Origin: a virus | Reading direction: 5' to 3' (one strand) | Length of the DNA: 64,000 bases | IMG/VR virus record: IMGVR_UViG_3300017987_000071 | Location: 19,733 to 83,732 of that record | In this document: in pieces, positions 59,166 to 64,000 of the stretch | Layout: the number at the start of each line of letters is the position of its first letter | How positions within the stretch are numbered: the stretch's first letter is position 1 | Made by a program: the position numbers and the translations under genes | Notes under the pieces: model-generated | Databases searched by the model: none | Told to the model about the DNA's origin: nothing | The model's input: the letters and a program-made list of their open reading frames with translations, nothing else

Positions 59166-59969
59166 TCAATCCTTTCTCAAAATGCGGGTGCGAGCTGCCC
59201 ACAAGCGAGCACCAACCAACGGACACTTAATTATAGCAACATTCTGCAACCCAGGTTTATCCCTATAAACCTTCATAGGGAATTCAACAACATTCCATTG
59301 TGGTGCCTCCATATAGTGTTGAAGGATACCTCTAGCATCCTCCCTGCTAGAATTCACACAAATGATTGTAGCATCTTCCTGAAATCGAGAAGTCAACACC
59401 TCCAACGCATGCTGAGCAATTCTTCCATAACCACCCAAAATCAACAAATCCACTTTCTGGTCCTGCATACACAGTCTCCTATGTATCATATCAGCAGAAC
59501 CAAAAAAGTCAACCTTGTCTTTCACCCCAATCGGAGAAAGACCATCGGCAAGATGCTGAAAACTGTACTGCTTCTTAGCACTAGCCAATAAATCGACCGA
59601 CCCCTTCCCAAAACCCTGCACCTGCACCACCGTCTTTGGGCGCAAAGTCTGTAGCATTAGGTCAATAAAATGAACAAAGTGCGGTGTGAAAGTAGACACA
59701 TAATATGGTGTCTTTATTTCCTCAAGCACCATCTGCTGGAGTTCGCGATCAGCACCAGGATACTTCTCCAACTCTAACTCCTTCGCCTTATCCGAATCAA
59801 TACTAACAGTATTCAACACCATAGTCGGAAAGGCATCTTTCTTTTCCTCTACTATAACCTCACCGGTTAACTCTGCAACCTCCTTCTTAGGTTTACTACT
59901 TTGCTTCTTGCTCCTCGCACTTTTCTTCTTACTCATACTACGTAATCTCCCATAAGCATTTTCTTCCAA
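59166..59969 (-). CDS. Degenerate methyltransferase-fold protein (likely start MSKKK 59936)
   Basis: RPKTVVQV..G.GS, KVDLLILGG: Methyltransf_24-like layout lacking the usual acidic residues. Confidence 0.5.
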   Translation of the reverse strand: MEENAYGRLRSMSKKKSARSKKQSSKPKKEVAELTGEVIVEEKKDAFPTMVLNTVSIDSDKAKELELEKYPGADRELQQMVLEEIKTPYYVSTFTPHFVHFIDLMLQTLRPKTVVQVQGFGKGSVDLLASAKKQYSFQHLADGLSPIGVKDKVDFFGSADMIHRRLCMQDQKVDLLILGGYGRIAQHALEVLTSRFQEDATIICVNSSREDARGILQHYMEAPQWNVVEFPMKVYRDKPGLQNVAIIKCPLVGARLWAARTRILRKD

Positions 59970-61975
59970 CGGTCTTCAGCCTGCTCCTGCATAGACTGAT
60001 CTACCATAAAACTCGATACCGCCTGTGGCGATGTCTCACCACCAAGGTCCACTAACTGAATCGAATTGTATATAGACCCAGCAACAGCATCCGCAACATC
60101 CTTCAACTCATCCTCCAATCTAAATACCCTACCATCAGCATCCTCCTGCAACGCCACAGCCTCATCCACTAACGGTTTATATCTATATGTTCTAAATCGT
60201 CCAGTCAGCAAAGTGCTCCTAAATGCCTGATATGGCAAACAAGGTTTCCGATCACAAGACAAGTTCTTCGCCTGCCATCCTGCCTTCTGCAAAATCTGGA
60301 TGCTGTGCTCCGACTGGTAACCATCATAAGTTATCAACCCAATATTATAACCCAAGTTGCGAAGAAAAGCATAGAAGGCTAAAATCTTATCGTAATCTAT
60401 TCTGCTAGGAGACGCTGGCGGAGCAATCCGCAAAGCAAAATCTAAGGTAACAATTGGCAACCGAGTCTCCTCAAGCGCCAGTGCCCCCGAAGACCGCTGC
60501 ATTACAGTCTTATAACCACTAACATGGCTCATCGCCATGCCAGTAGCACATTTATTTTTAGATAAGTCCGTATGGATAGCCCTCACAGCATACGGGTTCA
60601 ACTTAGGTTCCCACATTGATTCCCGCTGCCTGCAAGTACGCTCGCGATTAAAATAAAACGACAAGGGAGTTGCATCCCCCGTAGACAATGAAACAATAGA
60701 CTTATTAAACGGATGGACCAAAATATCACTCTCAGCATCGGTAAGCAACTCAGCACCCGGCAACCAAGAAAACTCACCAGCGCAACTAACCCCTGCAATA
60801 TCTCGCAGACTACGTATCAAGTTCTCTTCAAAAAACTGCTTAAATGCTCCTGGCACCTTAATTATTCGTCGGCCCACCGGTTCCTCATCCGGCTCCAACA
60901 TCCGAGGGTCATGGTACTTATCCCCGGCATCAACATAGAAGTAAGACTTCCACGCTTTACGCTTCACTTCCCAAATAGCATACTCGCTGATAAAGACACC
61001 AGGTTTCCCCTTACGCTTAGCGGAATGCTCAGCAAGAAATGAAGTTTCAGCTCGGGCCGAACTCACCAAACACATCAGAATTGGAATAAAACCATCTGTG
61101 TTAATGAAACGAGAAGCACCACGAATCAAACCTGCCGAGTACAACTCATACGCTTTACCCTTGTTGTCCTCGTAGCGTGCTCTTTCGTAATCTGCCATCC
61201 GCTTTCGCTCTTTATCATAAAAGTTAAGTTCATCGAGCAAAAAACCCTGCAAATTATCCCCAAGAGCACTAAGCACAGAAGACCCCCCGGTCCTAACACT
61301 TACATTACTAGGGAAATCCAATCCCATTTTGAGACGGGGGTTGCGTGGGAAGCACCGTTTAAAGTAGTCTGTGTTATCTACCATTGTCTGCATTCGCTTA
61401 TAGTTGTCATCTGCTTTATAAGCATAAATCGAATACAGACCATAAAAAATTGGTGAACGAGGAAGCAAACCCGCCCAAACAGCAGGGTCTCGCAAGCATG
61501 ACAGGTGATAAATCCGGTAGAGCAGAGCACACAACGCAAAAGTCGTCTTACCCCACCCAATCGCCCCTTTCAATATGACTTCATATATCCTATGCTTAAC
61601 CTCGCTAACATAACACAGGTCCCTAAGAGCAACCTCTCCCATACCTCTAGTCATCCAACCAAGGTAATTCCCTTGCGTAAAAAAGACCTCTGGGGACACA
61701 GGTTCCCTAGCATAGTCTACTTTGCGCATATCGTTATACGTCTTCGACGTACCAGAGGATACCAACTCACCAAGTACCTTTACAAGCCACAGTTGGAGTT
61801 CTGGGTCACACTCAGACAAAAACTCAGATACCTCACACAGCATATCATACCCAGATGGATCGGAAACCATATCCAACGCAGCATCCCGATCACCCTGGTC
61901 TATGATCTTCACTATGCGAGCAATCTGCTCCCTAACGTCCGTTGCCTCCAGCATCCTTACTCTTCCTTGCTTCAA
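59933..61975 (-). CDS. terL: Terminase large subunit
   Basis: Walker A GAIGWGKT, Walker B FLLDE, LVSS, RNase H-like HTDLS, YDGYQS, KDVADA. Confidence 0.93.
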   Translation of the reverse strand: MKQGRVRMLEATDVREQIARIVKIIDQGDRDAALDMVSDPSGYDMLCEVSEFLSECDPELQLWLVKVLGELVSSGTSKTYNDMRKVDYAREPVSPEVFFTQGNYLGWMTRGMGEVALRDLCYVSEVKHRIYEVILKGAIGWGKTTFALCALLYRIYHLSCLRDPAVWAGLLPRSPIFYGLYSIYAYKADDNYKRMQTMVDNTDYFKRCFPRNPRLKMGLDFPSNVSVRTGGSSVLSALGDNLQGFLLDELNFYDKERKRMADYERARYEDNKGKAYELYSAGLIRGASRFINTDGFIPILMCLVSSARAETSFLAEHSAKRKGKPGVFISEYAIWEVKRKAWKSYFYVDAGDKYHDPRMLEPDEEPVGRRIIKVPGAFKQFFEENLIRSLRDIAGVSCAGEFSWLPGAELLTDAESDILVHPFNKSIVSLSTGDATPLSFYFNRERTCRQRESMWEPKLNPYAVRAIHTDLSKNKCATGMAMSHVSGYKTVMQRSSGALALEETRLPIVTLDFALRIAPPASPSRIDYDKILAFYAFLRNLGYNIGLITYDGYQSEHSIQILQKAGWQAKNLSCDRKPCLPYQAFRSTLLTGRFRTYRYKPLVDEAVALQEDADGRVFRLEDELKDVADAVAGSIYNSIQLVDLGGETSPQAVSSFMVDQSMQEQAEDRWKKMLMGDYVV

Positions 61976-62846
61976 CTACAGCAGTAAGCACTTCCTCGTT
62001 AGCATCACATTCAACCTGACGCCCCCCGCTTTCACGCATCTTTTGCACAAGACTTAATAATTTGTTGAGTTTGGCAGCAGCATGCTCCCGCGACTCACTG
62101 CTCTTCAAAAAACCTGGTTGTGGCACAGGTTCAGGGGGTTTATCCTGCGAGTCAACATAAACACGTTGGCTCTGGTCTATAATATACGTTGACGGGTCAT
62201 CTTTCACACCCGCAAAAATCTTCTCCAAAAACTTAAGAGAACGCTCCTGCTGAGTAGAAATAAGTTGCAAAACTGCCACCAACTCTGGTGTCTTTGCCCC
62301 CTTAATTCGCTCCTCAGAAAACAATTCCGCCTCCACAGCCCCCACTGCCTGCCCCATACGAACAAGACGCTCTATCGTATTCAGTGTTAAAGCAGCCTGA
62401 ACAGCCTCTATCTTTGCACTATCCTGACTCAACACCGAAACAACAACATCCCGCACAGTTTCTTGAGCAGCCTTTCCATTGACTAAATTATCTTCAAGCC
62501 AATGAAGAAGTTTAATCGACTTAGACTTCCGCCGATAATCAATGATTCTTCCCAACGAAGTAGCTCTACTACTCGGAGGGGGAGGCTTAGTCTGTGGAAG
62601 GGAGGAAGGTTTCTTACTTGTCTTCCGTTTCTTTTTGGCTTTAGACTTAGGTTTAGGCAGCATCTTAACCTGATTCTCTTGAAACCCAATATCCTCCTTT
62701 GGTTCTACCTGCCCCACACCCTTCACTTCTGGAAACCTCTTGCGATACTCCGTTATATTGATCCCATGTGCACCCCGCACATGCCTACGCGTCAATGACT
62801 CACCACAAATCTGACATATCTCAATCATCAAAAAGATCATCCCCAC
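61932..62846 (-). CDS. Candidate terminase small subunit with N-terminal CxxC..H...H zinc finger
   Basis: Directly upstream of and overlapping terL; CQIC...H...HG..ITEYRKRFP; helical oligomerisation-type region. Confidence 0.55.
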   Translation of the reverse strand: MGMIFLMIEICQICGESLTRRHVRGAHGINITEYRKRFPEVKGVGQVEPKEDIGFQENQVKMLPKPKSKAKKKRKTSKKPSSLPQTKPPPPSSRATSLGRIIDYRRKSKSIKLLHWLEDNLVNGKAAQETVRDVVVSVLSQDSAKIEAVQAALTLNTIERLVRMGQAVGAVEAELFSEERIKGAKTPELVAVLQLISTQQERSLKFLEKIFAGVKDDPSTYIIDQSQRVYVDSQDKPPEPVPQPGFLKSSESREHAAAKLNKLLSLVQKMRESGGRQVECDANEEVLTAVVEARKSKDAGGNGR

Positions 62847-63294
62847 TCTTTGCTTCTTCGCTAGGAGTTATAAGAGAAGAATTAGTATCCACAGGCACAA
62901 CATGCTTAATCGTAGCCTTAAAGAATCCTGTACCATACATGTTGTCGATGCAACCCTCCAAATACGCCATAATCTCTTCTGGTTTCATTGCATCCCCGCC
63001 GGGTATTAAAGCAAAATCCCAAGAATCTGCCTGCCCACCTTCAACCTGCGCTACATAATGAACTGCAAACATCTTCGTCTTTCGATTGTCACCCTTTGCA
63101 GGTAGAGGAACACAAAAGTGACTTTTAGCAAGTACACCAGCCAAACGAGTCAGCAGATTTCTATATCTCTCGTACCACCCCGGTTGTCGATTACGCTGTA
63201 GCTCCTGCATCGACTTAAAAAGTGTCCTAGCCTCAGCATTAGCTAAAACAAGATTAACAAGTTCTTCCAGATTCCCAAAAACAACTCTCGGCAT
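62821..63294 (-). CDS. Hypothetical protein (first gene of the leftward operon)
   Basis: AGGAAGGA SD; downstream of promoter. Confidence 0.7.
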   Translation of the reverse strand: MPRVVFGNLEELVNLVLANAEARTLFKSMQELQRNRQPGWYERYRNLLTRLAGVLAKSHFCVPLPAKGDNRKTKMFAVHYVAQVEGGQADSWDFALIPGGDAMKPEEIMAYLEGCIDNMYGTGFFKATIKHVVPVDTNSSLITPSEEAKSGDDLFDD

Positions 63295-63384
63295 AACGCT
63301 TCCTTCCTAAGCAAAAATTCGCTGGTCGCTAAGCATTTCGCCCAGCAAACCAGCAATATTTAATATGAATGTAGTTATATATCT

Positions 63385-63413
63385 ACTATAACCCCCAAGT
63401 GATTACGTGTCAA
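63385..63413 (-). promoter_or_regulatory. sigma70 promoter driving the packaging/head operon
   Basis: TTGACA-N17-TATAGT on the minus strand. Confidence 0.85.
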
Positions 63414-63443
63414 GCATTCTTTCGTACTGCGAAAATATTTTTC

Positions 63444-63472
63444 TTGACAAGCGCTAAACAAATAACTATAAT
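63444..63472 (+). promoter_or_regulatory. Perfect-consensus sigma70 promoter driving the RNA cluster
   Basis: TTGACA(63444-49)-N17-TATAAT(63467-72), with AT-rich UP-like region upstream. Confidence 0.92.
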
Positions 63473-63513
63473 TATACTTTTCATTATTGACGGATTTTGC
63501 GTGCAGCAAAAGA

Positions 63514-63602
63514 AAGCATCGCAACGCACCAGATGGCTCAACTGGGAAACAACCGAGACTCTTTAAAGAGCGGTAAGTTGAGTCGGTCCAGGGCTGATGC
63601 TT
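63514..63602 (+). ncRNA. Putative structured RNA / leader
   Basis: Nested stems AAGCATC/GATGCTT, GGCTCAACT/AGTTGAGTC, ACCG/CGGT, CTCT-TTAA-AGAG. Confidence 0.5.
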
Positions 63603-63608
63603 AAGTTT

Positions 63609-63764
63609 AGTGGAGTAGTTTAATGGCAAAACAGCAGTTGCAACCAAGCGCTATGCAGGATCAAAACCTGCCTAAGACGGGCAACCAACTTAGTCGTCTA
63701 AAGGTAAAGACCGCAAGGATGCTGATAACCGCCGACGCGGGTTCGACCCCCGCCTCTGCTACCA
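63609..63764 (+). ncRNA. 156-nt tRNA-like RNA: outer cloverleaf with CCA, anticodon loop replaced by a nested permuted tRNA-like domain
   Basis: Acceptor AGTGGAG/CTCTGCT+ACCA, D-arm GTTT-AATGGCA-AAAC, T-arm GCGGG-TTCGACC-CCCGC; inner T-arm and D-arm described in findings. Confidence 0.75.
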
Positions 63765-63879
63765 GAGTTTATAAAACTCCTTTCCTTCCATATGGGGGTA
63801 CTTAATAATCAATAGTAATTTGCTTCTTTGCCACTTTAATCACAAAAAGCAGCACATATAACTACTTGTACCCCAATTT

Positions 63880-63958
63880 GCTCCTCTAGCTCAATGGCAG
63901 AGCACCTCGAAGGACGCTTTGAGGATGGATGTGGGTTCGATTCCCACGGGGAACTCCA
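63880..63958 (+). tRNA. tRNA-like RNA without canonical anticodon loop (8-bp stem + GACG tetraloop)
   Basis: GCTCCTC/GGGGAAC+TCCA, D-arm GCTC-AATGGCA-GAGC, CCTCGAAG-GACG-CTTTGAGG, T-arm GTGGG-TTCGATT-CCCAC. Confidence 0.8.
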
Positions 63959-63961
63959 TAT

Positions 63962-64000
63962 GCCACCGCAGCTCAATCCGGCAGAGCTTGGGAGCAAAAG
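63962..64000 (+). tRNA. 5' half of a third tRNA(-like) gene, truncated by window edge
   Basis: GCCACCG-CA-GCTC-AATCCGGCA-GAGC-T-TGGGA..., starting 3 nt after the previous CCA. Confidence 0.65.

Follow-up and report, generated by a model that had tools for sequence, protein, structure and literature searches.

The stretch of DNA analyzed here, referred to as the window, is the final 64 kb (64,000 nucleotides, nt) of a single virus contig of 83,732 base pairs (bp) from IMG/VR (record IMGVR_UViG_3300017987_000071). IMG/VR classes the contig as linear, and CheckV estimates its completeness at about 39%. A gene for a predicted RNA of 156 nt with two transfer RNA (tRNA)-like bodies is located in the final 600 bases of the window, and the contig ends 236 bases past the gene. 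In the proposed structure an outer tRNA frame carries a second tRNA-like body at the place where the anticodon loop of an ordinary tRNA is found. The parts of the RNA are as follows (positions of the window):

63609-63764, + strand: the whole two-bodied tRNA-like RNA gene, 156 nt
63609-63615, + strand: 5' strand of the outer acceptor stem, pairing with 63754-63760 in 7/7 positions (5 Watson-Crick and 2 G-U pairs)
63618-63632, + strand: outer D-arm, with a 4-bp stem and the loop AATGGCA that contains A14, G18, G19 and A21
63634-63639, + strand: 5' strand of the outer anticodon-stem equivalent, pairing with 63727-63732 in 6 layers with one A.C mismatch; no closing loop
63640-63650, + strand: 5' strand of the connector helix, pairing with 63712-63722
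63651-63654, + strand: inner variable loop CTAT, with the equivalent of U48 at 63654
63655-63671, + strand: inner T-arm, with a 5-bp stem and the loop ATCAAAA that contains U55, C56 and A58
63672-63693, + strand: inner acceptor-like arm, built from 5 Watson-Crick pairs, then a 2x2 mismatch and 2 more pairs below a GCAA tetraloop (63681-63684); no free end
63696-63711, + strand: inner D-arm, with a 4-bp stem and the loop AAAGGTAA; TC lies just before it (equivalent of U8 at 63694)
63712-63722, + strand: 3' strand of the connector helix
63723-63726, + strand: bulge TGAT, separating the connector from the outer stem
63727-63732, + strand: 3' strand of the outer anticodon-stem equivalent
63737-63753, + strand: outer T-arm with the loop TTCGACC, preceded by the 4-nt variable loop CGAC
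63754-63764, + strand: 3' strand of the outer acceptor stem, followed by the discriminator A63761 and the encoded CCA

The two G-U pairs of the outer acceptor stem are U3-G70 and G4-U69, and the connector is an imperfect helix of 11 layers with 3+2+3 pairs and three A.A mismatches. A 7-nt anticodon loop is absent in every reading of the RNA: the stem continues as a helix into the second domain. According to the proposed fold the two bodies would be joined through their anticodon-stem equivalents, with an imperfect helix of about 17 layers replacing the anticodon loop, and the inner body would run in the order variable loop, T-arm, closed acceptor-like hairpin and D-arm. All four D and T loops, outer as well as inner, retain the elbow bases. 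An earlier note on this DNA had listed U8, A14, A15-U48, G18G19, U55, C56 and A58 as elbow tertiary bases of the inner body, and all of them are present. The positions and sequences which it gave for helices and loops were all correct when each claimed segment was printed by a script. Its inner variable region GCTAT holds as the loop CTAT only, as G63650 had been counted twice and already belongs to the connector.

Folding of the RNA and readings as ordinary tRNA genes

The inner part had been taken for a permuted tRNA-like domain in the earlier note, and folding of the isolated part agrees with this. The structure of minimum free energy (MFE) of the inner module alone (63640-63722, 83 nt) is identical to the proposed back-to-front cloverleaf, which makes up 74% of the ensemble; the folding energy corresponds to z = -2.95, with 2/200 shuffles being as good. 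In the full RNA pair probabilities are 0.99 for the inner T-arm, 0.92 for the inner acceptor-like arm, 0.94 for its cap and 0.93 for the outer T-arm, and 0.42 for the inner D-arm. Judged by these models, the two-bodied fold appears well supported in this one sequence.

Reading the locus as two ordinary tandem tRNAs had been dismissed in the earlier note, and we come to the same result. Between the halves the acceptor strands pair in 7/7 (outer) and 5/7 (inner) positions, within the halves in 3/7 and 4/7. Neither half has an anticodon hairpin or folds into a cloverleaf by itself, and the energies of the halves sum to -35.7 kcal/mol versus -43.3 kcal/mol for the whole RNA. With the Rfam collection at gathering thresholds nothing was found in the whole window. 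At relaxed thresholds the tRNA model matched exactly 3 places in the whole contig, two in this gene and one in the gene that follows (41.1 bits). The stretch 63614-63673, which combines the outer D-arm with the inner T-arm, scores 22.2 bits in this model and the stretch 63687-63761, which combines the inner D-arm with the outer T-arm, 20.6 bits, both below the gathering threshold of 29 bits. ARAGORN called none of 504 re-permuted constructs (0/504), a negative that carries no weight, as ARAGORN requires an anticodon loop and a full acceptor stem and these constructs have no such loop and 5 bp of acceptor stem only.

For an estimate of chance we turned common tRNA criteria into a nested-module rule. 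It asks for a T-stem of 5 bp with G53-C61 whose loop reads N-U-C-R-A-N-N, immediately followed by an acceptor-like hairpin; two bases later there must be a D-stem of 4 bp with the loop A...GG...A, and the connecting helix must have 3 pairs or more. The controls were 300 contig-sized second-order Markov genomes. The strict T-arm rule alone is matched at 3 places on the + strand of the contig, two of which lie in the 156-nt gene and one in the next tRNA-like gene. The full rule gave 1 match in the 83.7-kb contig, at 63655/63696, and none in the simulated genomes (0/300). When the connector was left out of the rule, one false match was obtained at a normal tRNA-Leu/tRNA-Ile junction of Stenotrophomonas phage DLP_6. 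A T-arm followed by a D-arm is thus not rare inside tRNA rows, and this succession alone is insufficient. The specific evidence therefore lies in the trans pairing of the acceptor strands and in the two mutually complementary strands that take the place of the anticodon arms.

Together with the false match in DLP_6, several observations weigh against a two-bodied RNA that is kept by selection. The proposed fold of the full RNA has an energy of -41.6 kcal/mol, 1.7 kcal/mol above the MFE structure (-43.3 kcal/mol), and with z = -0.53 the folding of the full 156 nt is unremarkable. The energy model favors an alternative stalk of CAGCA (63632-36) and TGCTG (63720-24) with a probability of 0.74, gives the outer stem and the connector as first proposed a probability of 0.01-0.09 in the ensemble, and does not predict the weak outer D-stem; by this model the stalk of the two-bodied RNA is ambiguous. 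Inner position 54 is A, not U, and the outer Levitt pair would be A15.C48. Searches of phage records, IMG/VR, metagenomes and GTDB returned no homologue of the RNA, leaving no helix with covariation support. Finally, the contig, about 39% complete, holds no tRNA-related enzyme gene among those searched that would hint at a function.

Part of these points would also fit a functionless locus, namely two tandem tRNA genes in decay or a tRNA gene broken up by an insertion, the nested fold then being a leftover or a coincidence. The lack of homologues in the searches made, the z-score of the whole RNA, the mismatches of the stalk, the A.C in the outer stem and the non-standard A54 and A15.C48 all speak in its favor; furthermore, a T-arm is followed by a D-arm at every tandem tRNA junction, and the DLP_6 junction passed the looser rule. 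Nevertheless we judge it quite improbable. Decay would not be expected to yield trans pairing in 7/7 and 5/7 positions next to cis pairing in 3/7 and 4/7, or to make the two anticodon arms complementary to each other. In addition the elbow bases are kept in all four D/T loops, the CCA is encoded, a perfect promoter is located upstream, and the neighboring gene, which is also anticodon-less, has an intact tRNA shape scoring 41 bits.

The earlier note had expected an odd or intron-bearing call from ARAGORN and had stated that the RNA has no anticodon loop; both statements stand. In default mode ARAGORN makes no call, and with the intron option (-i) it reports a tRNA-Cys(gca) with a 77-nt intron at 35/36. 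A transcript spliced to a decoding tRNA-Cys(GCA) of about 79 nt is nonetheless hardly credible. Excision would leave an anticodon stem with a G.A mismatch, no base 26 and a 10-nt variable region. The discriminator is A here, whereas tRNA-Cys identity uses U73. A length of 77 nt is far below the size of group I introns, and no intron family was matched in the Rfam scans. There is no bulge-helix-bulge motif at the junctions, the sole bulge being 4 nt long and confined to one strand, and bacteria are not known to possess a tRNA splicing endonuclease. The supposed intron itself is a well-formed tRNA-like module. The reading as a tRNA-Cys with an intron was rejected.

Two further candidates were discarded. 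An archaeal-type split or permuted tRNA precursor would show a bulge-helix-bulge and an anticodon loop, neither of which is present. The transfer-messenger RNA (tmRNA) model RF00023 matches with 14.9 bits on the 3' T-arm and acceptor only, without the tag reading frame and pseudoknots of a tmRNA, and ARAGORN with the option -m finds no tmRNA.

Promoters, leader and neighboring genes

The features around the 156-nt gene are the following:

63444-63472, + strand: sigma-70 promoter with TTGACA, a 17-base spacer and TATAAT (12/12 matches); predicted start near 63480
63413-63385, - strand: divergent sigma-70 promoter (11/12 matches)
63480-63608, + strand: leader of about 129 nt, ending in U at -1 and adjoining a predicted ribonuclease P (RNase P) site
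63880-63958, + strand: neighboring tRNA-shaped gene, 41.1 bits in the Rfam tRNA model, with an encoded CCA
63961-64000, + strand: beginning of a third tRNA-like gene, separated from the second by two bases and truncated by the contig end
57506-59164, - strand: T4-type portal gene

The consensus promoter is located 137 nt upstream of the 156-nt gene, which forms the first unit of a row of tRNA-like genes downstream of the promoter and a structured leader. The second gene of this row resembles the first in one respect: in place of an anticodon loop, four bases (GACG) cap the 8-bp stem of its anticodon arm. ARAGORN reports it as an undetermined tRNA with a 4-base 'anticodon', and its acceptor stem has a C2.A71 mismatch. 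Because the next gene also lacks an anticodon loop, the row seems to encode non-decoding RNAs and not broken tRNAs. One Logan contig extends about 1.3 kb beyond the end of the window, and the row therefore probably continues there.

The position of the 156-nt gene as the first structured tRNA-like unit after a promoter and a structured leader would also suit a cis-acting element of the tRNA-like operon, i.e. an entry platform for RNase P or RNase E or a protector of the transcript end that does not act in trans. tRNA-like structures guide RNase P cleavage in non-tRNA transcripts. A processing signal, however, could do without a second elbow, an encoded CCA and two full sets of tertiary bases, and the tRNA cluster of T4 also keeps stable RNAs that stand alone. 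We consider such a role very unlikely.

The two promoters are arranged back to back (63385-63472) with a 30-bp gap in common, and the leftward one faces the block of genes on the portal side. A long imperfect hairpin can be drawn in the leader at about 63514-63602 (MFE -35.4 kcal/mol, z = -1.53; no Rfam match). This hairpin may serve in processing or represent another small RNA. Two open reading frames (ORFs) that overlap the gene, 63375-63647 (- strand) and 63623-63805 (+ strand), match no family and were rejected as protein-coding.

Between the portal gene and the RNA row three genes are located at 62821-63294, 61932-62846 and 59933-61975, all on the - strand, without a match in Pfam or PHROG. 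One of the three proteins, 157 amino acids in length, found no homologue but itself among 5.8 billion proteins. Genes for TROVE, PTH2, RtcB and a CCA-adding enzyme were not matched in the contig, which says little as the contig represents about 39% of the genome.

Compared with GenBank phages the portal reaches a best identity of about 26%; the virus therefore has no close cultured relative. We found two portal relatives only, at about 55% identity and both in Logan assemblies. Relatives in IMG/VR obtained by portal alignment are at most 28% identical and have no tRNA genes near their portal. The public sequencing runs that hold this DNA are sediment and seawater metagenomes, and no RNA run is listed among them. 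Contigs assembled from these runs are identical to the window and thus provide no variants.

Searches for homologues and comparison with known RNAs

Nucleotide searches (blastn) against 50,697 phage records gave no homologue for a 601-nt query. With the 156 nt as query (E <= 10) the only matches in these records covered the T-arm and acceptor of ordinary tRNA-Met, tRNA-Val and tmRNA genes. Pattern scans of IMG/VR gave no homologue, and the matches inspected were coding sequence or ordinary tRNAs. The metagenome pattern scan gave one match, inside a protein-coding gene of secretion type, and the GTDB pattern scan gave none. In addition we built a covariance model of the two-bodied fold from the single sequence. 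It detected no second copy in the window, and in five large phages (LR756511, Phosso, XacN1, RsoM2USA and Mel-JY01) it found ordinary tRNAs and, among the matches inspected, no nested RNA. A further match in XacN1 is weak (169 nt, 16.3 bits). A 152-nt match in Phosso was rejected as a nested RNA, as it consists of two units in tandem that are each folded in cis.

In the genome of the cultured Sinorhizobium phage Phosso we also noticed an unannotated tRNA shape (PV764938.1, 427822-427893) with a 7-bp acceptor stem, an ACCA end and D and T arms, the T-loop being GTCAAAA. The anticodon arm is replaced by a 6-bp stem with the six-base loop ACGAAA, and ARAGORN makes no call. The sequence directly precedes a tRNA-Leu gene.

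The outer T-arm and acceptor of the 156-nt RNA resemble phage tRNA-Met genes. A resemblance to the outer frame is likewise seen for the T-arm and acceptor of tRNAs in DLP_6 and Erythrobacter phage R6L. In the DLP_6 stretch KU682439.2, 102956-105983, ARAGORN reports 10 tRNA genes compared to 7 annotated ones (an Asp, two Met and a Tyr tRNA are unannotated), and makes no call for the annotated tRNA-Ile-GAT at positions 443-514 of that stretch. In R6L ARAGORN finds an unannotated tRNA-Met.

With a canonical tRNA (RF00005) the RNA shares the outer 7-bp acceptor stem, the discriminator, the CCA, the D-arm and the T-arm, and it has the elbow bases in both bodies. It differs from it by lacking a 5-bp anticodon stem with a 7-nt U33 loop and by having its acceptor strands in different halves. 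The species 1 and 2 RNAs of T4 (rnaC and rnaD, 139 and 119 nt) are likewise stable non-tRNA RNAs whose genes belong to a phage tRNA cluster; at its end rnaC has a T-arm with an acceptor-like stem, and the portal in our contig is also of the T4 type. Unlike the 156-nt RNA, however, rnaC and rnaD have plain internal hairpins without a second D/T pair or a nested permuted module, and there is no sequence similarity.

In circularly permuted tRNA genes, known from red algae and some archaea, the T-arm half comes before the D-arm half, a loop closes the acceptor stem and the two ends make up the anticodon stem, as in the inner body. Their transcripts, however, are precursors that a splicing endonuclease circularizes and that mature into decoding tRNAs with a normal anticodon loop. 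The 156-nt RNA, in contrast, has neither an anticodon loop nor a bulge-helix-bulge, and is found in a bacterial setting with sigma-70 promoters.

The closest likeness is that between the inner module and YrlA (RF02553), an RNA of bacteria and some phages. The literature likens YrlA to a circularly permuted tRNA whose acceptor stem is closed (PMC4201824; bioRxiv 10.1101/312249). Chen et al. reported that in YrlA conserved T and D stem-loops flank an acceptor-like stem-loop and that a variable region precedes the T-arm; they listed seven possible tRNA tertiary contacts including G15:C48 or A15:U48. The crystal structure of YrlA is a true tRNA L-shape. The inner module shows the same succession of variable loop, T-arm, closed acceptor-like hairpin, two bases and D-arm, the same entry and exit via the anticodon-stem equivalent, and the same tertiary set including a Levitt pair of the A15:U48 type.

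The two RNAs differ in what the module is attached to. In YrlA it is placed on a stem that binds Ro60/Rsr and carries the motif GNCGAAN0-1G, and the gene adjoins rsr, whereas here it is placed on a complete, CCA-ended tRNA frame. The motif GNCGAAN0-1G has no match in 63480-63790, and a Ro60/TROVE gene was not matched in the contig, which represents an estimated 39% of the genome and stops 236 bases after the 156-nt gene. The YrlA covariance model (gathering threshold 69 bits) did not match the 93 nt of 63636-63728 even at E <= 10. Its sole match in the region (19.6 bits) lies across the boundary between the two tRNA-like genes that follow. The 156-nt RNA is outside the YrlA family proper and can be grouped with the YrlA-type tRNA mimics by its inner layout. 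The statement of the earlier note that the architecture is undescribed has to be divided: the inner half is the known YrlA-type layout, and the nesting of a permuted module in a CCA-ended tRNA frame is absent from the literature searched, in which we found no paper describing a tRNA frame that carries a second, back-to-front tRNA body.

YrlA also gives rise to a different account of the mature product. The primary transcript might be two-bodied, with RNase P cutting inside the capped inner acceptor arm, and 3' trimming might then produce two pieces of about 75 nt each, paired or separate, perhaps with two acceptor ends. In the inner body the T-stem, the 5 pairs and the 2 mismatched layers form a stack of 12 layers, with the 2-bp GCAA cap directly beyond. 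RNase P measures a 12-layer stack. Each half is tRNA-sized and scores about 21-22 bits in the tRNA model, and the YrlA of M. smegmatis is cleaved by RNase P in its acceptor-like hairpin and receives CCA in vivo. The YrlA paper, however, ties cleavage to a true 7-bp acceptor stem, while here there are 5 canonical pairs only. The shorter stems of S. Typhimurium YrlA and D. radiodurans Yrn1 were found uncut, and the inner stem is not followed by an in-register CCA. We regard cleavage into two pieces as unlikely, if the least unlikely of the alternatives.

A published model traces YrlA back to a dimeric tRNA transcript: the first tRNA supplied the T-arm and the second the D-arm, and what was left of both pairs to form the Ro60-binding stem. 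The 156-nt RNA shows the dimer layout of this model with its outer tRNA parts intact, a layout that the model would predict for an intermediate.

A possible role as a non-decoding tRNA mimic

Weighing the above, we lean towards the structural claim that 63609-63764 encodes a selected, non-decoding tRNA mimic with two elbows. The mimic is probably real and non-decoding. Its formation may be envisaged as follows. The RNA would be transcribed from the promoter at 63444-63472 together with the neighboring anticodon-less tRNA-like genes. RNase P would cleave after U63608 and thereby define the mature 5' end, and trimming at the 3' end would expose the encoded CCA. In both bodies the D/T loop pairs would dock into elbows. 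YrlA is modified by tRNA enzymes, and tRNA-modifying enzymes may act on the T and D loops of both bodies in the same way. Charging by a synthetase is unpredictable, because the acceptor stem contains no recognized synthetase identity set.

By mimicry the RNA might occupy or link proteins that read the acceptor end, the T-arm or the elbow and not the anticodon. Candidate targets would be tRNA-directed host defence nucleases as well as tRNA processing or modifying enzymes. Bacterial anti-phage immunity often attacks tRNAs, and phages respond with tRNAs of their own (PMC10264068, PMC11464382, PMC11555353, PMC12851939). Cas12a3 recognizes the acceptor stem, the T-arm and the CCA tail and still cleaves substrates after stepwise removal of their loops. 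Since anti-phage nucleases reading the acceptor, T-arm and CCA exist and many other defences attack tRNA, a role as decoy or competitor is plausible by analogy. Provided that the structural claim holds, we would put this mechanism forward tentatively, at clearly less than an even chance.

A more far-reaching proposal would combine several of these points. The RNA would belong to a widespread, unpublished class of phage RNAs with two tRNA bodies on one stalk, offering two elbows and a single CCA end, would act as a bivalent decoy or tether with the neighboring sealed-anticodon mimics against readers of tRNA shape, and would at the same time be a living dimeric-tRNA intermediate of Y RNA origin. 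Taken as a whole, this proposal appears rather doubtful to us.

Default tRNA finders overlook genes of this kind or take them for tRNAs with an intron, and as a result they stay hidden in phage annotations. As to the origin of Y RNAs, it is of relevance that the layout of the 156-nt RNA is the dimeric tRNA layout of the published YrlA model. With two tRNA bodies and a CCA end and with the anticodon discarded, the RNA would be of no help to translation. Should it be produced and maintained by selection, it would point to a shape-based, non-decoding tRNA mimicry in phages.

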